DNA of 64,000 nucleotides from an uncultured Candidatus Saccharibacteria bacterium (lineage in GTDB: Bacteria > Patescibacteriota > Minisyncoccia > UBA6257 > GWB1-50-10): positions 5,287-69,286 of the forward strand of contig CAYHLH010000002.1 of NCBI GenBank assembly GCA_964357525.1, read 5' to 3'. Below the pieces are notes generated by a model. That model ran no database searches. It had not been told where the DNA came from and saw nothing but the letters and a program-made list of their open reading frames with translations. The position numbers and the translations under genes are program-made. Of this stretch, positions 13,844-64,000 are shown in pieces. Each line of letters starts with the position of its first letter. Position 1 is the stretch's first letter.

Positions 13844-15283
13844 CTATTTCATCAGTATCATTTTCTTCGTATCCGTAAAATCATCGGTTTTCAACCTGTA
13901 GAAGTAAACTCCGCTCGGCAAATTGACTCCGTCAAAAGAGACTTCGTAATTTCCGGCAGGCTTCATTCCGTTTACAAGAATTTCAACTTCTCTTCCGAGG
14001 ATGTCGTACACCGTAAGGTTTACAAGTCCTTTTTTAGGAACAGAAAACTGAATTTTTGTGACAGGATTGAACGGGTTCGGATAGTTCTGGGAAAGGGAGA
14101 ATTTTTCAGCAATCTCATTCTGATTCTGGATCCCCGTCATGGAGTCGGGCGCGTATTTCTTTATCCATCCGATCGACAGCGGATTTTGTCCGTTATCGAA
14201 GGATTTACCAAGAGCATAGAAATATCCTTGGTGAAATTTCACTCCCTGCACGTGGTTTAGGACATATTGCGGGTGTTGCACGATTCTCGTGCTCCACTTT
14301 CTGTGTCCATCAAGATCGAATGCGGCGAGGTACCCCGCCTTTTGCGACGTCCATTGCAGAGAATCCCTTCTGATCTGTGCTCCTATCAATATGAGATTCT
14401 GGTATTGCGATATGCTAACACCCTGAACAAAGTTCTCTTCATTCGCCGCGGAACTTCCGTTCGGAAGCCACATGGTGTCCCATATGATCGCGCCGTTTGT
14501 TCCGTTCAGTTTGCACAACCGGAACCATAATGCATAAAGCGGATTGAGCGAACCAGTCACGGTCATGCCGACATAGCAATTCCCGCTTGAATCAACATCC
14601 CCGTCCGTGGTAATTCCGATGGAATCCATGAAATCTTTTCTCCATGTTTGCTGGCGGGTCGCAAGATCGAATCGCATCACGGTGTTGCGGTAGGTGCCGT
14701 TGAAGGAAGTCGTGAAAATAGTCAGCTTGTCGCCTACCACTTTCGGATGCCTTCCGGCGGTGATGTTCGCCCCGATGGGAAAACTGCTCCGTTGGGTCCC
14801 GAACTCGTCATATATGAATATGATGTCATTCAATACATCAACCACGACGACACTGTCTCCGTAAACAGCAAGAAAAGGCGCTCCGACATATACCGAACTC
14901 GTATTGAGCAGAGCGCCCGATGAGGCGTCCCTGAACACAAGACGGTAATTATTGTTGGCCGCTTGGTGCGAGACATTCACTGTCTTGTTCTTTCCAGCAA
15001 GCACATTCAGTTGCGAATGACTGGCGATGGAGTTGTTATTGAACGTAGTGTCCAATTTCACCCACTGGGTAAGGCCGTTCACCGAATTACAGCGTATGAC
15101 ATGGGATTTGAAGTTGGTATAACCTCCGAGAAACAGCCCCCCGTTCCATACCTGCAGCTCGTTCGGATCCAGATGGTTTCCCTCGGAAGGAGGGTATTCC
15201 TGCGTCCAGACCAAAGATGGCGTCTGCGCGTTTGTTGCAAGAGCGCAACAAAAAAGCACAAGAGCGATGATTAGTGTTTTCAT
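13844..15283 (-). CDS. Secreted protein with a type IX secretion system C-terminal sorting domain (Por_Secre_tail)
   Basis: Signal peptide MKTLIIALVLFCCALATNAQ. C-terminus QNYPNPFNPVTKIQFSVPKKGLVNLTVYDILGREVEILVNG...LPSGVYFYRLKTDDFTDTKKMILMK matches the T9SS CTD consensus. Lower GC than the backbone. Confidence 0.7.
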   Translation of the reverse strand: MKTLIIALVLFCCALATNAQTPSLVWTQEYPPSEGNHLDPNELQVWNGGLFLGGYTNFKSHVIRCNSVNGLTQWVKLDTTFNNNSIASHSQLNVLAGKNKTVNVSHQAANNNYRLVFRDASSGALLNTSSVYVGAPFLAVYGDSVVVVDVLNDIIFIYDEFGTQRSSFPIGANITAGRHPKVVGDKLTIFTTSFNGTYRNTVMRFDLATRQQTWRKDFMDSIGITTDGDVDSSGNCYVGMTVTGSLNPLYALWFRLCKLNGTNGAIIWDTMWLPNGSSAANEENFVQGVSISQYQNLILIGAQIRRDSLQWTSQKAGYLAAFDLDGHRKWSTRIVQHPQYVLNHVQGVKFHQGYFYALGKSFDNGQNPLSIGWIKKYAPDSMTGIQNQNEIAEKFSLSQNYPNPFNPVTKIQFSVPKKGLVNLTVYDILGREVEILVNGMKPAGNYEVSFDGVNLPSGVYFYRLKTDDFTDTKKMILMK

Positions 15284-15507
15284 TTCAAACTCCTTTCGAG
15301 TTCCAAGCTTTTCAGCTTATTAATTTATTTAATTACTAGGTTCATTATAGCACATTACTACAAAATTTTCAAGTTATTCTGTCAATCCCTCACATAACAA
15401 GTTATATAAGGGATAAAGATAAGGTTTTAAGCGGTTTTTGGGTAGTTTTAATAATCAAAGAAACTAGGTCTTCCGGACGAGGTCGGGTTTTCTTGTTTCT
15501 CGATTTA

Positions 15508-15577
15508 CCCGGTAGTAGAACCGCGACAGGTTCTCCACCTTTGGGTAGTCGCGGTACACTACCGGGTTTGCTACAAT
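15508..15577 (+). promoter_or_regulatory. Type-A hairpin (CCCGGTAGTAGAACCGCGACAG...TAGTCGCGGTACACTACCGGG) followed by extended -10 TTTGCTACAAT
   Basis: Long inverted repeat with termini CCCGGTAGTAG / CTACTACCGGG, then the TGnTACAAT box. Its predicted transcript starts at about the ATG of the type-B element at 15585. Confidence 0.55.
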
Positions 15578-15584
15578 GAAACAT

Positions 15585-15718
15585 ATGCCCAGTAATACAA
15601 CTTCAATTCGCTTTGCGAAAAAGTGATTGAAGCACAGTTGCTGGGGAAAGTCGCAGTACAAACAAAAAGTTAAAAACACCTTGTCGCGGTGTAACCAATT
15701 GAAGTTGATATACTGGGT
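15585..15718 (+). mobile_element. Type-B inverted-repeat element, ORF-less derivative (MITE-like) of the GIY-YIG element at 63224-63544; its 3' end abuts the ATG of the 15719 gene
   Basis: ATG-CCCAGTAATACAACTTCAATTCG...CCAATTGAAGTTGATATACTGGGT-ATG. First 7 codons MPSNTTS identical to the GIY-YIG gene start, then a stop after 13 codons. About 23 bp terminal stem with a 3-nt central mismatch. Confidence 0.6.
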
Positions 15719-17179
15719 ATGAAAAATAAAAGGGAAATTGTATTTATTTTAGTCGGCGTGGCGTTCCTACTCTTCGTCCTTGTTTCCATGGGGGTGTTCC
15801 GGAATCTCGGGCAGCAGGTGGCCCAGGAGTTCTATGTGAACGCGAAGGGAGAGAAGTGGACGCTTCCGGACGGGAAGTACGAGTTCACGGTGAGCGCGAG
15901 CGGCTATCCGCGATTCCTAGGTGGAGTGATAGACCCCGTGAAAGTAAAAGTGGGAGATACGCAGACGATGACGGTCCGCGTCGCGAGCCCGGTGCCGATA
16001 GAGAGCGTCGTCGCTGAAATTCAAACGGACACAAAGACGCAGGAAATCGCGCTCACACTCGTGGAGAACAAGGCACTTTCGGGAGAGTATTTTGAAAACC
16101 AACCATACCTCATTGACGACAGCGGGGAGCTCATCATCAACAGGGCGAACTCAAGCTATGCGGAGAAGGCGATAAAGCAATTGGTCGCGAGCGCGGAGGC
16201 ACAATCCCTCGTAGAATATGTCTTTGAGGGCGAGTGGGTGGTAAACGACACGCATACGAAGCTTTACCACACGAAGTTCACGGCGACGGATGAGGACGGC
16301 AATGCCGACGAGCTCATTCTCGCGTGGTCCGACCCTGTGTGCAATTTTCTTACTGATGTTGATGGCACCGGATTACTTCAAGGAGACTGTTCAGTAACCA
16401 ACGGAGTTGAGGGTTTTGACGGGGCAAATCTTAGTTTGAATGGACATCAGGTAACTCTTTCCGGTACTTCCTCTCTCATCTGGAACGGGGATGCCGAAGG
16501 CAATCGGTCGCTCATCATAGGAGGGGGAAGCATCAGTATCGGCAACGGCACGCAGGTGAAGGAAGCGCTTCTGTGGTACACCGACCTTGATGCGGATACC
16601 TTTACGGCGGATTTGGGAACAATACACTACGAAGATTGTTCTCTGCCGCCGTGCCCGCAGAGGGTGCGCGTTAAAGATTCTCCATCGCGACCGTGGTTCA
16701 CTCCCGCCTTGGCAAACGGTCTTGACTGTCTCGACGACCCGACTATCGGGGATTTCAAGGCGGTTGACGTTCATCCCCAGCTTCCCGGGGAGGAGAAGTA
16801 TTTCGAGGATTTCTACAACGCGGGAGTGACAAACCCACAGAGTTACGACTACGACTGTTCCGGCGCGGCGACCGGAGGATGGGGAAATAATGTTCCCACC
16901 GATATAACCTCAACAACCCTCGTCTACTTCGACATAATAAGCGGCGGTGACGACCAGGGCGGCGGCAAGCAGTTATGCAATACAGGAGCGACCATAGAGG
17001 ATTTCTCTTCGTACTGCGGTACTCTCTCTCCTTCCACTTTCATACGGTGCGATGTTGGGCTCATTACCGGCGGTGGCGTGGGGAGCCCGGAGATTTTTCC
17101 TCCAGACCTTGAAAACGGATGGATGTACGGCACGTGCACCGAATGCATCGGCGTCTCGGTCGCCGGATTCTGCCACTGA
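15719..17179 (+). CDS. Secreted/membrane-anchored hypothetical protein with Cys-rich C-terminal region
   Basis: N-terminal signal anchor. C-terminus has multiple CxxC-like cysteines (CDVGLITGGGVGSPEIFPPDLENGWMYGTCTECIGVSVAGFCH). Confidence 0.55.
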   Translation: MKNKREIVFILVGVAFLLFVLVSMGVFRNLGQQVAQEFYVNAKGEKWTLPDGKYEFTVSASGYPRFLGGVIDPVKVKVGDTQTMTVRVASPVPIESVVAEIQTDTKTQEIALTLVENKALSGEYFENQPYLIDDSGELIINRANSSYAEKAIKQLVASAEAQSLVEYVFEGEWVVNDTHTKLYHTKFTATDEDGNADELILAWSDPVCNFLTDVDGTGLLQGDCSVTNGVEGFDGANLSLNGHQVTLSGTSSLIWNGDAEGNRSLIIGGGSISIGNGTQVKEALLWYTDLDADTFTADLGTIHYEDCSLPPCPQRVRVKDSPSRPWFTPALANGLDCLDDPTIGDFKAVDVHPQLPGEEKYFEDFYNAGVTNPQSYDYDCSGAATGGWGNNVPTDITSTTLVYFDIISGGDDQGGGKQLCNTGATIEDFSSYCGTLSPSTFIRCDVGLITGGGVGSPEIFPPDLENGWMYGTCTECIGVSVAGFCH

Positions 17180-28430: not shown

Positions 28431-28439
28431 GGTTCTCCC

Positions 28440-28574
28440 ATGCCCGGTAATACAACTTCGATGCGCTCCGTGAAAAATGAATCGAAGTGTAATGCCTTTG
28501 GAAATTAATGACACGAGTAAATATCAAAATTACATTAGTCGCGGTGATAACCAATCGAAGTTGATATACCGGGC
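28440..28574 (+). mobile_element. Type-B inverted-repeat element (ORF-less derivative of the GIY-YIG element), filling the whole intergenic space between the 28140 gene stop and the pilB ATG
   Basis: CATG-CCCGGTAATACAACTTCGATGCG...CGCGGTGATAACCAATCGAAGTTGATATACCGGGC-ATG. Keeps codons MPGNTTS then a stop after 23 codons. Arms carry compensatory changes relative to the 15585 copy (A/T to G/C at two stem positions). Confidence 0.6.
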
Positions 28575-30320
28575 ATGACCGATCAGGACTTGGTGAAGGA
28601 ACTCGTGGGGGCGTCGCTCCTCTCCGACACGGAAGGGGCGAAATTGTTGCATGACGCCGAGACAAGCAAGAAGCCGGTGGAGGATTTCATCTATGACGGC
28701 CATCTCGTCGACGACGTGGCCGTCGCGAAGGCGAAGGCGAAGCTCCTGGGAGTCCCTTTCAGGCGCGCGGACGTTTCAACCATTCCAGATGCGCTATTGA
28801 AGCTCATCCCGCAGGAGACCTCGGAGAACTACAAGGTCATCCCGATGGAACGCAAGGGGAACATGCTCGTGGTGGGGATGCTAAATCCATTGGACGAGCG
28901 CGCCCAGGAGGCGCTCCGCTTCATCGCGAAGCGGGAGCGCGTGAGCCTTGGGGTGTATCTCATCCCCATTTCGGACCTCAGGGAGGCGTGGCGCAAATAC
29001 AAGCCGTACAAATCCGAGCTCGAAGAACTCGTGACGAGCGTGTCAAAGTCCATGAAGGGCGAGAAGTCCGCACTGGTTTCGCTCGACGAGGCGTCAAGGA
29101 CCTCTTCGGAGGACGCGCCCATAATCAAGATGGTCGCAAAAACCCTGCAGAACGCAGTTGAAGGACTCGCCTCGGACATTCACATAGAGCCCGGCAGAAC
29201 CGCTCTTAGAATACGCTTCCGCGTCGACGGCGACCTTAAGGAGGTTGCGTCGCTTCCAACTATGTTGGCTCAGCCCATCGTCTCGCGTGTTAAGGTCCTC
29301 GCAAACCTGCGCCTCGACGAAAACCGAATTCCGCAGGACGGACGGTTCCGGACCATAATTCAGAACCGGGAAATCGATTTCCGCGTCGCGACATTCCCTG
29401 TTCCGACCGGCGAAAAGGTGGTGCTCCGCGTGCTCGATCCGCTTACTGGCCTCAAAGGTCTGGAGAGCCTCGGATTCGAGGACTACAATTTCAAAAAAAT
29501 ACAGGCGGCCGTCGCCGCGCCGTACGGGATGATAATCATTTCCGGCCCCACGGGGAGCGGGAAGACGACGACCCTGTACGCCATCATGAAGAAGATGGAC
29601 GCCGTGACGCAGAACATCGTGACTTTGGAGGATCCGGTGGAATACACCATGGACGGCATCAACCAATCGCAGGTGAAGCCCGAGATTGGTTACACGTTCG
29701 CTTCGGGCCTGCGGCAGATCCTCCGCCAGGACCCCGACGTGGTCATGGTCGGCGAGATCCGCGACGACGAGACGGCCGGCTTGGCGGTGAATGCGGCCTT
29801 GACGGGACACGTCGTCCTTTCCACCTTGCACACCAATAACGCCATCGGCGTAATTCCTCGGCTCGTAGACTTGGGCGTGGCGAAATTTCTCTTGCCATCG
29901 GCGTTGCACACCATGCTAGCCCAGCGCCTGCTTTCACACCTCTGCCCGGAGTGCCGGAAAAAAGATGTAGCTCCGACGGAATTGCAGGCGATAATTGCAG
30001 GCGAGATAAAAAAACTCCCGGCGGAGACTCGGGAAAAGGTTGTCTCCGAATTCGGCAAAAGCGCGTACGAGACGTACCGCACCGAACCGAAGGACACGTG
30101 CAAAGTGTGCAAGGGAAAGGGCATTGTAGGCAGGATTGCCATAACCGAGGTGTTCCAGATGACGCGCGAGCTCGGAACGATTATTGCCGAAGGATTCTCC
30201 GAGGACAAGCTGTATAAGGAAGCAGAGAGGCAGGGAATGATTTCAATGAGGGCTGATGGCATCGTGAAGGCACTGAAAGGCGAAGTGCTCATAGAAGAGG
30301 TGCTCCGCGAGACGGAGTAG
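28575..30320 (+). CDS. pilB: Type IV pilus assembly ATPase PilB (GspE family)
   Basis: N-terminal GSPII_E N domain, Walker A GPTGSGKTTTLYA, Asp box, His box, and a C-terminal tetracysteine motif (CPECRKK...CKVCKGKG). Confidence 0.9.
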   Translation: MTDQDLVKELVGASLLSDTEGAKLLHDAETSKKPVEDFIYDGHLVDDVAVAKAKAKLLGVPFRRADVSTIPDALLKLIPQETSENYKVIPMERKGNMLVVGMLNPLDERAQEALRFIAKRERVSLGVYLIPISDLREAWRKYKPYKSELEELVTSVSKSMKGEKSALVSLDEASRTSSEDAPIIKMVAKTLQNAVEGLASDIHIEPGRTALRIRFRVDGDLKEVASLPTMLAQPIVSRVKVLANLRLDENRIPQDGRFRTIIQNREIDFRVATFPVPTGEKVVLRVLDPLTGLKGLESLGFEDYNFKKIQAAVAAPYGMIIISGPTGSGKTTTLYAIMKKMDAVTQNIVTLEDPVEYTMDGINQSQVKPEIGYTFASGLRQILRQDPDVVMVGEIRDDETAGLAVNAALTGHVVLSTLHTNNAIGVIPRLVDLGVAKFLLPSALHTMLAQRLLSHLCPECRKKDVAPTELQAIIAGEIKKLPAETREKVVSEFGKSAYETYRTEPKDTCKVCKGKGIVGRIAITEVFQMTRELGTIIAEGFSEDKLYKEAERQGMISMRADGIVKALKGEVLIEEVLRETE

Positions 30321-62293: not shown

Positions 62294-63223
62294 TCAGTTA
62301 GCCGCGAGAAGCACGACGATGCCGGCAAGGAAGAGCGCGGATGCGGCAATTTTTTGGATGGCCGCAATTCCAGTGAACGATTCCTTGAGCACGGAGGGGA
62401 ACCTCGCGGAGAGCGCGAACGCGAAGAGTTGCACGAAGAGGAACTGCACCCCCTGCAGGGCGTTCACGACGGCGACCGCGCCCGCCGGCGCGAGGTACAC
62501 GGCCGCGTTCTGGAGCACTCCCGCCGTCGCGCCCGCGCCCTGGATGCCGAGGAAAGTCCCTGTGCCTCCGCGTTTCGTCTCAGCCGGCGCTTCCGGCACG
62601 CGCTCCTTTTTCCGGAAGAGCTCGCTCCGCACGGAAGGCGAGAATGCGAATATCGCGAGTGCGGCGAGTGCGCCGAAAAGCCTTGCCCACAAAAGCCCGT
62701 CCCAGAAAGGCCCGAGGGAATACACGTATTTCAATGACACGAAGTACATCGCGAAGAGCAGCGCGGGAAAGAACGCAGCGCCGAGGCTAAGGAGGATGCG
62801 TTTGCCGCGCTGTGCGGTCACGACGACGCTCGCCGCTACGAAGAGGATGAGCGAGAGCGCCTGAGCGGAACCGATGGGCTCCCGTGGGAATACCGCGTAC
62901 GCAAGGAGGAGTGTGAGAAGGGGAAGGAGCCCGCCGATGGCGGGGATTATGCGCGAGGATTCGTGGACATTCAGGTTCTTATAGAACACGCCGAGCGCAA
63001 TGATGAAGATTATGCCTGAAAAGGCCGAGGTGAAGAGGAATTGCGCGCCTGGGAGAGGGAATCCGAAAAATGGGGCGAGCAAGACCACGAGCCCGCCCAG
63101 CGCGCCGACGTAGAAGGTGAATTGGAGGGGGCTCGGGACGACCTTCGCGAGTAGATATTTGTCCCCGACGGCGTTCACCGCGAAGAGAAGGTAGGCGAAA
63201 AGCGCCGCCGCAAGCCAGAGCAT
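62294..63223 (-). CDS. EamA/DMT-superfamily-like polytopic membrane transporter
   Basis: 309 aa with about 10 TM helices in two repeated halves. Its ATG is directly abutted by the 3' inverted repeat of the GIY-YIG element. Confidence 0.55.
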   Translation of the reverse strand: MLWLAAALFAYLLFAVNAVGDKYLLAKVVPSPLQFTFYVGALGGLVVLLAPFFGFPLPGAQFLFTSAFSGIIFIIALGVFYKNLNVHESSRIIPAIGGLLPLLTLLLAYAVFPREPIGSAQALSLILFVAASVVVTAQRGKRILLSLGAAFFPALLFAMYFVSLKYVYSLGPFWDGLLWARLFGALAALAIFAFSPSVRSELFRKKERVPEAPAETKRGGTGTFLGIQGAGATAGVLQNAAVYLAPAGAVAVVNALQGVQFLFVQLFAFALSARFPSVLKESFTGIAAIQKIAASALFLAGIVVLLAAN

Positions 63224-63541
63224 CCCAGTATATCAACTTCCAGTGACGCCAGACGCCCCTTTGGAACGCTGGTATTCCTGAAGTCGCAATCCGAGGAACC
63301 TCCGACCCTGGGTTCCCTTGAGATAGTGTTCCCTGCGTCTGGCGTCTTTTAAGTTTGTGCACCCCTCAAAGTACACGAGCTTGAATGGTCTGCGGGGAGC
63401 AGTTGCAAGGCTTTTGCCTTTTTCGTGCGCTTCCAATCTCTGCCTGAGGTTGGGAGCATACCCGATGTATCGTTTGTTGTCCTTCATGCTCTCCAAGACG
63501 TAGACATAGTGGAAGTGCACTCTGGAAGTTGTATTACTGGG
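63224..63541 (-). mobile_element. Type-B inverted-repeat element, full-length copy carrying a GIY-YIG gene (candidate parent of the copies at 15585 and 28440)
   Basis: Minus-strand reading: ATG-CCCAGTAATACAACTTCCAG...CTGGAAGTTGATATACTGGG-ATG. The 5' arm is the first codons of the GIY-YIG ORF. The 3' arm contains its TGA stop and ends exactly at the ATG of the 62294 gene. Confidence 0.55.
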
Positions 63542-63544
63542 CAT
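63233..63544 (-). CDS. Small GIY-YIG nuclease superfamily protein (YhbQ/UPF0213-like), 103 aa
   Basis: YVYVLESMKDNKRYIGYAPNLRQRLEAHEKGK...RRPFKLVYFEGCTNLKDARRREHYLK matches the GIY-YIG motif series. ATG 1 nt after the TAG stop of the upstream glycosyltransferase gene. Only the C-terminal 103 aa of the 206-aa track ORF are real. Confidence 0.7.
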   Translation of the reverse strand: MPSNTTSRVHFHYVYVLESMKDNKRYIGYAPNLRQRLEAHEKGKSLATAPRRPFKLVYFEGCTNLKDARRREHYLKGTQGRRFLGLRLQEYQRSKGASGVTGS

Positions 63545-63545
63545 C

Positions 63546-64000
63546 CTATTGCCGCGCGACGAGGCGCGCGATGTGTTCGGTGCCCTTTCGTTCCATCTTG
63601 ATGAATCCCTGCATCGCCGCCTCGGCGAACTTCCCCTCGTTAAGGAAATCGAAGAACCACTGTTCGGTGAACTGCACCGAGAGCTGGTCGAGCCCCGCGC
63701 CCGTGTAGAGGAGCCATTTGCGGTTCTGTATCTCCTGCGAGCCGATGGGAGGCGCGATGATGATGGGGATGCCGAACGCCCCGAAAAAGGAAAGCTCCGA
63801 CGGCTTTGTCCAAAGCACGTCCACCGAGTGGAGGAGTCCGTTGAATTTTTCAAAATATTCGTCCTTCGTGTCGGCGAAGAGGACGGTAAAGGTCTTCCCG
63901 AGATGTTCCTCGAGCCCGAGTTCGCGGGCGGCGCGCATGAATTCGTCTCGCGCGTCGGCGGAGACGCCGGCGACGAGGTGGAGGAGGATCTTCCCCGCGC
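63546..64000 (-). CDS. GT28-family glycosyltransferase (MGDG synthase/UgtP/MurG-like), C-terminal part; gene continues beyond the window end
   Basis: Frame open to nt 64000. Glyco_tran_28_C-like motif GIPIIIAPPIGSQEIQNRKWLLYTGAG. Confidence 0.5.
   Translation of the reverse strand, partial: AGKILLHLVAGVSADARDEFMRAARELGLEEHLGKTFTVLFADTKDEYFEKFNGLLHSVDVLWTKPSELSFFGAFGIPIIIAPPIGSQEIQNRKWLLYTGAGLDQLSVQFTEQWFFDFLNEGKFAEAAMQGFIKMERKGTEHIARLVARQ

Follow-up and report, generated by a model that had tools for sequence, protein, structure and literature searches.

Three segments of the window, that is, of the whole stretch of 64,000 nucleotides (64 kb) analysed here, are probably one autonomous copy (A) and two internally deleted copies (B and C) of a family of small mobile DNA elements of Patescibacteria. 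The case for this is built from the anatomy of the element and its copy number, a deletion series, placement flush against start codons, an orthologous site without the insert, helices that covary, and an encoded nuclease under purifying selection. The family is apparently undescribed: no published description was found in the literature searched (subscription-only papers being outside its scope), and the sequence-only reading of this DNA had likewise been aware of no such bacterial family. Copy A, its ORF, its helices and its neighbours are located as follows.

63224 to 63541, minus strand: body of element A, the autonomous copy, 318 nt, CCC...GGG, with arms that form an inverted repeat
63233 to 63544, minus strand: GIY-YIG (UPF0213/YhbQ-like) ORF, 103 aa, Pfam PF01541, E=4e-15
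63522 to 63541, minus strand: 5′ arm of A, CCCAGTAATACAACTTCCAG, with P1 strand 63541-63535, loop ATA 63534-63532 and P2 strand 63531-63522
63224 to 63243, minus strand: 3′ arm of A, CTGGAAGTTGATATACTGGG, with P2 strand 63243-63234, loop ATA 63233-63231 and P1 strand 63230-63224
63507 to 63520, minus strand: 5′ strand of helix P3, codons of the SxVxF region, pairing with 63425-63435
63425 to 63435, minus strand: 3′ strand of helix P3, codons of the E-x-H region
63335 to 63346, minus strand: 5′ strand of helix P4, codons of D-A-R-R-R-E, the catalytic Glu region, in a perfect 12-bp inverted repeat
63245 to 63256, minus strand: 3′ strand of helix P4, C-terminal tail codons directly before the 3′ arm
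63221 to 63223, minus strand: host start codon 3′ of A, second copy of the duplicated ATG, aligned with the ortholog Met at the empty site
62294 to 63223, minus strand: host gene downstream of A, 309-aa membrane protein with a faint EamA match
63546 to 64000, minus strand: 3′ end of the host gene upstream of A, a 436-aa DUF6938/GT28-like protein

First of all, the ORF of A is the 103-aa minus-strand GIY-YIG gene within inverted-repeat arms that the sequence-only reading had described, and its ATG (63544-63542) does follow the TAG of the upstream gene (63548-63546) after a single G (63545). This ATG, which had been assigned to the 5′ arm, sits in the flanking repeat, outside the paired body, and the stop codon TGA (63235-63233) falls within the 3′ arm. 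The internal 12-bp inverted repeat had also been noticed; it is real and 100% complementary (63245-63256 with 63335-63346), although its coordinates had been given 1 to 6 nt off. The same architecture is seen in 21 other full-length copies. The two other copies of the window lie on the opposite strand.

15588 to 15717, plus strand: element B, non-autonomous, 130-nt body, arms 15588-15607 and 15698-15717, TATG flanks 15584-15587 and 15718-15721
15719 to 17179, plus strand: host gene of B, a 486-aa protein for which no Pfam hit is recorded
15569 to 15577, plus strand: tentative extended −10 box TGcTACAAT near B, 7 nt before its 5′ ATG, a leaderless spacing
28443 to 28573, plus strand: element C, non-autonomous, 131-nt body, arms 28443-28462 and 28554-28573, CATG flanks 28439-28442 and 28574-28577
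28575 to 30320, plus strand: host gene of C, a pilB-type ATPase (MshEN + T2SSE)

B and C have the same arms as A, as had been recognised, and the internal block GTCGCGGTG(A)TAACC that they were said to have in common is real; the arms of C carry a compensated G-C pair in P1. The arm 13-mers, 5′ and 3′, occur exactly three times each within the 64-kb window, with 0.6–0.7 matches expected in a shuffled window even when 2 mismatches are allowed, and a looser scan found no fourth copy in the window. It had further been claimed that all three copies occupy the space between an upstream stop and a downstream ATG. A does so and all three are start-codon junctions, but B does not follow a stop, since the intergenic region around it (435 bp) is divergent and the upstream gene (13844-15283) runs on the other strand. 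C begins 9 nt past the TAA of its upstream gene. For the candidate −10 box of B, a two-hexamer promoter scan found no plus-strand promoter.

Beyond the window, the exact 5′ arm is present in at least 116 genome contigs, nearly all of them MAGs of Patescibacteria, and among the matches listed three single MAGs carry at least 13, at least 11 and at least 10 loci. The 113 non-redundant complete copies among the matches listed comprise 63 of 120–170 nt, 25 of 200–260 nt and 21 of 305–330 nt, together with 3 that hold a nested copy and 1 of 66 nt; several MAGs, which are incomplete, have many small copies and no full-length copy among the matches listed. That is to say, there is a deletion series from about 315 nt (intact) through 200–260 nt to 120–170 nt, and the arms, 20 nt long with 17 near-invariant positions, are kept in all size classes. 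The mid-size copies (200–260 nt) keep N- and C-terminal GIY-YIG pieces, for example profile positions 1–41 plus 72–100, and both halves of helix P4 are kept in small copies such as L030, L066 and L071. These intermediates with fragments of the nuclease ORF support the earlier suggestion that the nuclease copy is the likely parent of the miniatures, and the arm search across genomes and metagenomes that had been proposed with it returned many other copies with different flanking genes.

Several known categories were tried for this repeat and rejected. A phage or plasmid origin is rejected because the 17-mer arm gave 10 hits in IMG/VR, none with an ATG or a 3′ arm and thus chance matches, and because a tblastn search of phage and plasmid records yielded a single weak match in phages and zero in plasmids. 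A known ribozyme, intron or leader is rejected because Rfam returned only tRNAs, both for the whole window at the gathering threshold and, at E ≤ 1 or E ≤ 0.1, for a full copy, a small copy and three small-copy loci. A group I intron with a GIY-YIG ORF was likewise set aside: Rfam gave no match at E ≤ 1 for a full or a small copy, the whole element is occupied by the ORF, and the elements stand in front of genes, not inside them as group I introns would.

Moreover, the observation that the copies are flush on start codons holds for unrelated genes across the family. About 95% of copies have, after the 3′ arm, a (T)ATG that opens a real host ORF; (N)ATG follows the 3′ arm in 125 of 129 cases, and an ATG precedes the 5′ arm in 135 of the 140 cases found by a search without an ATG requirement. 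Since the collection scan for the 5′ arm required a preceding ATG, the unbiased evidence on the 5′ flank is that of the secondary copies in fetched loci and of the three window copies. When the downstream ORF was checked in 112 copies, it had at least 60 codons in 106, and the median in-frame open extension upstream was 5 codons; the Pfam domains of the host proteins start at residues 2–15. Of the remaining TATG sites in these loci only 10% resemble starts, and under a crude neutral model about 24% would be at starts. Every copy has the orientation of the gene downstream and abuts its AUG, and these host genes, which include recA, gyrA, ligA, gatB, gap, pilB and aminoacyl-tRNA synthetases, have nothing in common. 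No ancient orthologous insertion can be read from hosts that recur: the lysS-like and pilB hosts are found in two distant genomes each, and such coincidences are about as numerous as chance predicts.

The flanks themselves resemble a 3–4 bp duplication with the consensus TATG, and in the flank logo only T at −1 plus ATG is common to the target sites. Among the matches listed, the flank pairs x/y are T/T in 83, A/A in 3 and C/C in 2; x differs from y in 12 of about 100 copies, and in 13 copies zero nucleotides stand between GGG and ATG and only ATG is repeated. Nested copies are flanked by CAAG on both sides, those in L019, L102 and L074 being in-frame insertions into ORFs, and tandem copies have one TATG in common. 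The flank pairs and the CAAG-flanked nested copy fit the earlier guess of an ATG or CATG target duplication.

The nuclease ORF has no ATG within the element and uses the upstream duplicate, and the 5′ ATG is in use where a solo 5′ arm runs on in frame into a long host ORF (MPSNTTS..., 306 and 444 aa). The canonical ORF stops at the TGA in the 3′ arm, which leaves 9–10 nt to the host ATG; the L147 sub-family has TAG at that position instead. Leaderless-type promoters lie upstream of the elements, 6–7 nt before the ATG, a spacing that is enriched across the family. The 3′ arm was also considered as an outward promoter and rejected, TGATATACT resembling an extended −10 that stands only 3–4 nt from the host ATG. 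Among the small copies in the matches listed, the length is a multiple of 3 in 30 of 63 and an ORF stays open to the arm TGA in 10 of 63, so any selection for such an ORF is at most a weak tendency and termination–reinitiation is not the general route behind small copies.

The explanation proposed is as follows. The element would insert at (T)ATG with a 3–4 bp duplication and, if the site is a start codon, would duplicate that codon. As the element supplies the ORF only from codon 2 onwards, the upstream ATG copy, with the host promoter and initiation context, would become the start of the nuclease ORF, and the downstream copy would still start the host gene. Since the TGA lies so close before the host ATG, ribosomes could end there and then restart on the host gene, and for this reason the element could sit before essential genes. 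The GIY-YIG protein would recognise the conserved arms, probably as a folded single strand, and cut the element, the target or both; non-autonomous copies would be moved in trans, and translation of the host gene would be kept by coupling or by the closing helix. On this reading the nuclease would be what moves the element. The term translation-transparent is used for an element that has no start codon of its own, duplicates the host start, uses host promoter and initiation signals (often leaderless) and passes ribosomes on to the host gene.

As for the protein, the PF01541 domain covers residues 12–81 of the 103 aa, and the rest is encoded by the arms and P3/P4. It is evidently under purifying selection (dN/dS of the core about 0.12, with synonymous sites saturated), and its catalytic-type residues are invariant. 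Against the PDB, the family profile matches UPF0213 BH0048 (1zg2, E=1.6e-9), EF2693 (1ywl, E=3e-5) and Slx1 (7wme, E=7e-3), and both the homology to solved members and the single-domain size place it in UPF0213/YhbQ; these proteins and Slx1 are the nearest by sequence, similar in size and made of a catalytic domain only. Folded arms would present the kind of branched or stem-loop DNA that Slx1 is able to cut, and the present clade is predicted to be a candidate nuclease. No report of a mobile context or flanking arms for UPF0213, YhbQ or Slx1 proteins was found in the literature searched, profile searches in NCBIfam gave nothing beyond the generic GIY-YIG domain, and PADLOC and PHROGs had no hits.

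A nuclease alone cannot join DNA, which counts against mobility by GIY-YIG alone; we know of no strand-transfer activity in a 100-aa catalytic domain of this kind, nor of any prokaryotic transposon driven by GIY-YIG. The elements could accordingly be mobile and yet be moved by another enzyme or process, that is, by a hairpin-recognising HUH/Y1 enzyme in trans or by replication slippage and recombination, with the nuclease as a maintenance or homing factor or as a passenger exploiting a borrowed start codon. IS200/IS605 elements are single-strand 'peel and paste' transposons, and the present element resembles their logic in its fixed tetranucleotide target and folding ends, as well as in its very small size and strict orientation. 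The MAGs with many small copies and no full-length copy among the matches listed would suit this reading too, and transposon maintenance nucleases do exist, as with TnpB in IS605 (PMC10690162). However, IS200/IS605 has an HUH/Y1 TnpA, for which the present element has no ORF, and it has a subterminal hairpin within each end without inverted repeats or duplication, whereas here the ends pair together and the flanks look duplicated. The longest form has the GIY-YIG gene as its sole ORF, extending from one end to the other, no second gene travels along, the arms and the protein change together between sub-families, and the purifying selection on the protein is strong; for homing, moreover, the empty sites would have to agree in sequence, and they agree only in TATG. 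A mover other than the nuclease is therefore considered unlikely.

The preferred reading, a family moved by its own nuclease, also draws on the way in which the element folds. Its ends pair through P1 (7 bp), an invariant 3 × 3 ATA/ATA internal loop and P2 (10 bp). In the arms, 97.4% of cells are paired and 100 cells are changed on both sides; in the full-length copies, 35 pairs are 98% paired, 10 of them with double changes; each result was reached by 0 of 500 shuffles. Helix P3 has double changes in 3 pairs among 19 copies, and 4 of the 7 consensus pairs of P4 covary. The sequence-only reading saw the arms and the internal repeat, but the covariation of the arms and of two further helices escaped it. 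Because the varying base pairs stay complementary, recognition of a folded single strand is probable, and it is to such a strand that the covariation points. Mismatches in the helices number 6–8 for G.U and 10–13 for A.C, without an excess of G.U, and one P3 pair (U-A 14, U.G 5) is the only hint on the folding strand or on RNA. The ATA loops were considered as IS608-like guides for a TAT target, an idea that found no support, the complementarity being only 3 nt and the sub-families L146 and L147 having no such loop.

The same helices could belong to a structured leader that acts as RNA on how the next gene is translated or how stable its message is, and that the host retains for this purpose; dispersal would then be secondary and the GIY-YIG ORF incidental. 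Four helices (P1–P4) covary, two of them within coding sequence; the copies are co-oriented and flush with the AUG of the next gene; within one genome the arms are nearly invariant against interiors that are 65–90% identical; and both AUGs can be drawn into an extended P1 helix. Such a leader is nevertheless improbable as the whole account, given that there is no Rfam match even at E ≤ 1, no excess of G.U over A.C and nothing in common among the downstream genes. Duplicated flanks, copies nested or in tandem and a series of internal deletions are what insertion of DNA leaves behind, and a regulatory RNA needs no nuclease under purifying selection. An RNA role in addition to mobility may well exist and is included in the preferred reading.

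GIY-YIG is a classical homing endonuclease fold, known from free-standing genes such as the seg genes of T4 and from the intron-encoded I-TevI, and the sequence-only reading had likened the present gene to free-standing homing endonuclease genes. It shares with them the fold and the habit of a selfish nuclease gene that sits between host genes and uses host expression signals, and the group I intron endonuclease model TIGR01453 gives a weak match (E=0.004, far below its cut-off). The likeness stands as an analogy only. T4 seg and I-TevI have DNA-binding modules, one long target and home to alleles, whereas in the 103-aa protein Pfam found no separate DNA-binding module, no single long cognate target exists, and dozens of unrelated target genes are occupied within single genomes, with only TATG in common. 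They lack conserved ends and non-autonomous derivatives, and the present element has both; by definition, homing endonucleases do not recognise their own element (PMC1564403, also a survey of the GIY-YIG superfamily). With the family absent from phage and plasmid collections and from IMG/VR as well, a homing gene that spreads between alleles of one site by cleavage and repair is highly improbable.

For the mobile family, an unoccupied site is available for copy A. In the closest relative found, L132, the orthologs of the neighbouring genes (77% and 62% amino-acid identity) are joined without the insert; the junction reads aaaaATGAcctgg, and its Met aligns with the 3′ ATG of the window (63223-63221). 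This is the outcome of the comparison of orthologous operons that had been suggested earlier. Because L132 has only 62–77% protein identity, its empty site would date an insertion or a loss and is no proof of current mobility. No species was found to be polymorphic for the presence of a copy: JGI metagenomes had no match to a gapped pattern that joins the flanks of the P0025 locus, scanning for related loci with the upstream protein gave the source organism alone, and for the host genes of B and C identical proteins turned up at filled sites only. A plain resident yhbQ-like gene with a coupling hairpin, the 130-nt elements being convergent leaders, would suit the tight operon packing (stop 9 nt before the next ATG), but it is refuted and keeps practically no probability, because L132 has the neighbours joined directly, the neighbours differ in other relatives, and at least 100 copies with the same arms stand before unrelated genes, which also disposes of the null named by the sequence-only reading, a gene always at this operon position and without other copies.

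Among described repeats, the mobile family proposed here is to be compared with bacterial MITEs that have parent insertion sequences, such as the Correia elements of Neisseria, ERIC and the Rickettsia palindromic elements. Like them, it is short and multicopy, with terminal inverted repeats and flanks that look like a short target duplication; its short copies derive by internal deletion from a coding parent; and MITEs too are often co-transcribed with their neighbours, with mRNA hairpins possible. The in-frame nested copies have a counterpart in the occasional in-frame ORF insertion of Rickettsia palindromic elements. Shared terminal inverted repeats, many unrelated loci and internal deletion are thus all found, whereas a parent transposase of a recognised class is not: the parent encodes only a GIY-YIG nuclease of about 100 aa, and no DDE, serine, tyrosine or HUH transposase was found in the element. 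Unlike MITEs, moreover, its parent ORF has no start codon inside the element, about 95% of its copies are flush on start codons, its arms hold variable yet complementary pairs, and two more helices covary in the ORF. Bacterial MITEs and their parent insertion sequences have been reviewed (PMC3184786).

Tentatively, and with slightly less than even confidence, the family may represent a new class of mobile element, whose sole protein would be a GIY-YIG nuclease of minimal size working on the element as a folded single strand, and which would be translation-transparent and maybe actively start-directed. If this is true, a nuclease-only element would be added to the ways in which DNA moves in bacteria, and the large uncharacterised family of YhbQ/UPF0213-type GIY-YIG proteins of about 100 aa would gain a testable role. 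Should gene starts be actively targeted, how this is done would be a new question. In streamlined genomes such as these, with almost no spare intergenic space, the element would be a compact answer for selfish DNA, which could insert before essential genes (recA, gyrA, ligA, aminoacyl-tRNA synthetases) without killing the host. For the annotation of Patescibacteria, this repeat is the source of hundreds of calls as 'GIY-YIG nuclease family protein' or 'excinuclease ABC subunit C', as well as of short spurious MPSNTTS ORFs, misplaced start codons and contig breaks. In turn, its strict placement on start codons, often with leaderless spacing, makes the copies natural markers of true translation starts in uncultured organisms.

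The window holds three copies of one element, a full-length one (copy A) and two internally deleted ones of the 130-nt class (copies B and C), whose features are as follows.

Features of the three copies in the window (copy A read from the sequence, its arms from an inverted-repeat search)
63548-63546, minus strand: TAG stop of the gene upstream of copy A, followed by a single G
63544-63542, minus strand: ATG of the GIY-YIG ORF
63541 to 63224, minus strand: body of copy A, from CCC to GGG
63541-63522 and 63243-63224, minus strand: the two 20-nt arms of copy A
63235-63233, minus strand: TGA of the 103-aa ORF, within the 3' arm
63223-63221, minus strand: host start codon directly 3' of copy A, opening a 309-aa membrane ORF
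15588-15717, plus strand: copy B, 130-nt body with the same arms, then the ATG of a 486-aa ORF
28443-28573, plus strand: copy C, body of the 130-nt class with the same arms, then the ATG of a pilB-type ATPase ORF

The body of copy A is filled by the 103-aa ORF, residues 12-81 of which are a GIY-YIG domain (PF01541, E=4e-15, Pfam). Taken as a simple inverted repeat, its two arms show 85% complementarity, the three mismatched positions being an ATA opposite an ATA in the centre. The sequence-only reading, which saw one coding and two miniature copies with shared arms, was correct according to the window sequence and to the arm 13-mers, each of which occurs 3 times against 0.6-0.7 expected with 2 mismatches allowed; a looser arm scan of the window found no fourth copy. 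It had also placed every copy between an upstream stop and a downstream ATG: the ATG side holds for copies A, B and C, while copy B stands in the spacer between two divergent genes and copy C begins 9 nt past its upstream stop. TGcTACAAT is located 7 nt 5' of the ATG of copy B (15569-15577), where a two-hexamer promoter scan called no promoter. About 210 nt upstream of copy B, a near-consensus promoter on the minus strand (15344-15372; TTGAAA, 17 nt, TG-TATAAT) serves the divergent gene 13844-15283.

At least 184 relatives of the GIY-YIG protein (about 100 aa, 60-72% identity) were found, which are called Patescibacteria GIY-YIG proteins if they are named at all. The exact 5' arm, scanned in one genome per species with ATG required before it, matched at least 116 contigs. 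Among the matches listed, these contigs belong almost all to Patescibacteria MAGs (labelled Doudna-, Kerfeld-, Azam-, Portnoy-, Yanofsky-, Terry-, Sungbacteria and others), single MAGs hold at least 13, 11, 10, 7, 6, 5 and 5 loci, and 113 complete copies are left after removal of duplicates: 63 of 120-170 nt, 25 of 200-260 nt, 21 of 305-330 nt (18 with an intact 99-105-aa ORF), 3 of 378-393 nt with a nested copy and 1 of 66 nt. Because mid-size copies still hold both ends of the GIY-YIG gene (e.g., profile positions 1-41 plus 72-100), the short forms are internal-deletion derivatives, which bears out the earlier view of the miniatures as non-autonomous. Each genome has its own size class with related interiors (65-93% identical), and the arms are almost identical everywhere. 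The canonical arm, i.e., that of the window, gave only chance 17-mer matches in IMG/VR, and phage and plasmid collections contained no close relative of the protein. Canonical elements were also seen on contigs of MAGs labelled Gammaproteobacteria (loci L026, L038, L044, L068, L104, L108, L110 and L121; L numbers denote loci from other genome contigs), Pseudomonadota (L069) and Bathyarchaeia (L100), which may be due to mis-binning, mislabelling or real transfer. Many contigs (L014, L015, L022, L035, L061, L075, L094 and others) end about 60-120 nt from an element, and one MAG has two contigs with the same flank at equal distance from the contig ends; the repeat evidently breaks short-read assemblies of these genomes.

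Because the collection scan accepted only arms preceded by ATG, the 5' flank of its primary matches is not evidence for position; three independent lines are. When arms were searched without any flank requirement in 856 kb of loci, ATG stood directly before 135 of 140, and ATG or NATG came after 125 of the 129 3' arms, which were never part of a search pattern. With the element removed in silico, an ORF of at least 60 codons continues downstream at 106 of 112 sites, the in-frame open extension upstream of these 112 sites has a median of 5 codons, and in the 20 host proteins examined the Pfam domains start at residues 2-15 of the ORF from the 3' ATG. About 95% of the copies, non-autonomous ones included, are on start codons in sense orientation, against about 24% expected under a crude model of insertion at any TATG outside long ORFs; only 10% of all other TATG sites of the same loci are start-like. 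The host genes, whose ATG adjoins the 3' arm, are unrelated and often essential: gatB, recA, gap, two lysS-like genes, pheT, gyrA, ligA, ftsA, a class A PBP gene, pilB, a comM-like gene and others. The same gene is occupied in two distant genomes in the case of lysS-like (L045:4860-6323 and L078:2878-4329, proteins 46% identical) and pilB (window 28575-30320 and L117:5269-6948, 37% identical), one member of each pair being full-length and the other deleted, and this count of coincidences is about that expected by chance among 58 genes.

The only visible sequence preference of insertion is TATG in A/T-rich DNA, and apart from T at -1 (76%) the flank logo shows just an overall A/T richness. Upstream of the 113 elements (in L003, L013-L128 and the window), no Shine-Dalgarno signal was found (G about 8% at -6/-7), 27 copies have a TANNNT hexamer at a distance of exactly 12-13 nt from the A of the 5' ATG (background about 4 per offset), and a co-directional ORF ends within 20 nt upstream in 40. 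Leaderless promoters have this same distance of 12-13 nt. The flanks thus suggest that initiation in these Patescibacteria commonly follows leaderless transcription or stop-start coupling.

The flanks also carry a signature of insertion. Written as x/y, where x precedes the 5' ATG and y lies between GGG and the 3' ATG, the nucleotides are T/T in 83 copies, C/T in 6, A/A in 3, A/T in 3, C/C in 2, C/G in 1 and T/G in 1, and 13 copies have no y. If the element itself supplied an unchanging y, five concordant non-T pairs would be very improbable, so the flanks favour a 4-bp duplication with consensus TATG, sometimes of 3 bp only. In the window, the flanks are TATG/TATG (copy B), CATG/CATG (copy C) and GATG/ATG (copy A), and tandem copies in L051 and L076 have one TATG common to both. 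Three full-length copies from different genomes (L019, minus strand, element offset 1730; L102:1412-1804; L074:1974-2440) contain a small family copy nested inversely between the conserved TQ and GRRF of the nuclease ORF, with the order CAAG, CCC...GGG, CAAG; it measures 66, 81 or 150 nt including the repeat and is always in frame and stop-free. The orthologous site is empty in L132, the closest relative found (upstream protein 77%, downstream protein 62% identical), where the sequence aaaaATGAcc spans the overlap of the two genes and the Met of the downstream protein lines up with the 3' ATG of the window; more distant relatives have different neighbours. No empty allele within one species was found by a gapped flank-junction pattern, a related-locus scan or host-protein look-ups.

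The arms pair with each other as helices P1 and P2. Differences among copies A, B and C are compensated changes, A-T versus G-C in P1 and CAG/CTG, AAT/ATT and GAT/ATC at the inner end of P2. Standard pairing holds in 97.4% of cells across 80 distinct arm pairs. There is hardly any variation at positions 1-7 and 11-17, A.A, T.T and A.A occupy positions 8-10 without exception, and the last three P2 pairs vary yet stay complementary (one is C-G in 45, G-C in 29 and A-U in 4). Both sides have changed in 100 arm cells, a value matched by 0 of 500 shuffles. RNAalifold, applied to 19 full-length copies, added two helices within the ORF, both on the minus strand: P3 (63520-63507 with 63435-63425), in which SxVFF codons pair with EEH codons, and P4 (63346-63335 with 63256-63245), in which DAKRRE codons pair with the tail before the 3' arm and which is the internal 12-bp inverted repeat noticed earlier. 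These copies have 35 pairs in all, 98% paired and 10 with double changes; none of 500 shuffles reached the observed values, including a pair-count measure rarely fooled by phylogeny, and sliding the partners by 1-3 columns lowers pairing to 34-42%. Some small copies keep both halves of P4. Freely varying yet complementary pairs are unexpected if a protein reads each end as duplex DNA, which argues that a single strand folds; from sequence, the folded molecule may be RNA, DNA or both. Mismatches comprise 6-8 G.U versus 10-13 A.C in the arm and full-length sets, and Rfam gave no match even at E<=1.

The MPSNTTS N-terminus and the FGxGS-stop C-terminus are near-invariant in relatives though outside the catalytic domain, being the translation of the arms. 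Elsewhere in the ORF the median dN/dS is 0.12, synonymous sites are saturated between genomes and the GIY-YIG signature residues are invariant, all of which points to a working protein and an old family. The nearest solved structures to the family profile are UPF0213 BH0048 (E=1.6e-9) and EF2693, then Slx1. The canonical clade is 1 cluster among 569 related ones (50% clustering, E<=1e-10), and sister clades have other self-complementary ends but keep the CCC...GGG termini, are flanked by TATG on either side and sit flush before the host gene: CCCCGTACCACAG/CTGTGGTACGGGG before clpB and a Wzy-type gene, and CCCAGTGCTACAACTT/AAGTTGTAGCACTGGG before a methylase gene, with TAG where the canonical TGA stands. 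These sub-families are at L003/L004:5629-5919, L146:1501-1815 and L147:475-775, the last type, which has the TAG, being without an internal loop. Recognition of the ends by the nuclease has its best indirect support in the fact that protein and ends change together; a less probable alternative is that some other activity moves the DNA while the nuclease only promotes its retention.

A different clade of small GIY-YIG genes lies directly upstream of tRNA genes (L088:1080-1830; L032:4990-5317; L014, 4658-4940, minus strand; L053:2423-2678; L015:1855-2128). L088 has two of these genes in a row, with a copy of the first ~25 nt of tRNA-Cys (GGCCAGGTAGCCAAATGGTAAGG) before and after each, and the real tRNA-Cys at 1746-1820. 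These look like a sister lineage of cassettes with tRNA genes as their target, which would restore the 5' portion that they displace. The window has ten tRNA genes in 64 kb (2052-47129, several clustered at 41.5-47.1 kb), none with a GIY-YIG ORF beside it.

As for the working of the canonical element, the element proper has no ATG for its ORF, which starts at the upstream one of the two host start codon copies, and the 3' arm itself supplies the stop, 9-10 nt ahead of the host ATG. In three remnants only the 5' arm survives (minus strand of L085, offset 3158; L119, offset 1967; L072, offset 7404), with no 3' arm within 3 kb; it is fused in frame to a 306-aa membrane protein, a 444-aa secreted-type protein and a third membrane protein, which begin MPSNTTS or MPGNTTS, and in L119 TATAAT lies 7 nt before the ATG. 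Such fusions to long host ORFs show that the 5' ATG serves as a start. Insertion at a start codon would place the nuclease under the host promoter and initiation context; in a quarter of cases this context would be leaderless, and in a third it would be linked to an upstream ORF by coupling. Ribosomes terminating at the arm TGA would restart on the host gene. Only 10 of 63 small copies keep the ORF open to this TGA, so termination-restart cannot fully explain them; there, the closing helix that brings the upstream context beside the host AUG, or RNA processing, may matter. Cleavage by the nuclease would fall at the base of the folded ends, at TATG targets or at both, with the joining completed by host functions.

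The family behaves like a MITE-and-parent system but without a known transposase class; it has the nuclease fold in common with homing endonucleases but neither a single target nor a DNA-binding module, and it has some logic in common with IS200/IS605, whereas it is without an HUH enzyme and pairing is between the ends, not within each. No description of it was found in the literature searched, Rfam, Pfam, NCBIfam, PHROGs or PADLOC, and the family, read here as a TIR element with derivatives, has a substantial chance of proving to be a new class once its mechanism is known.
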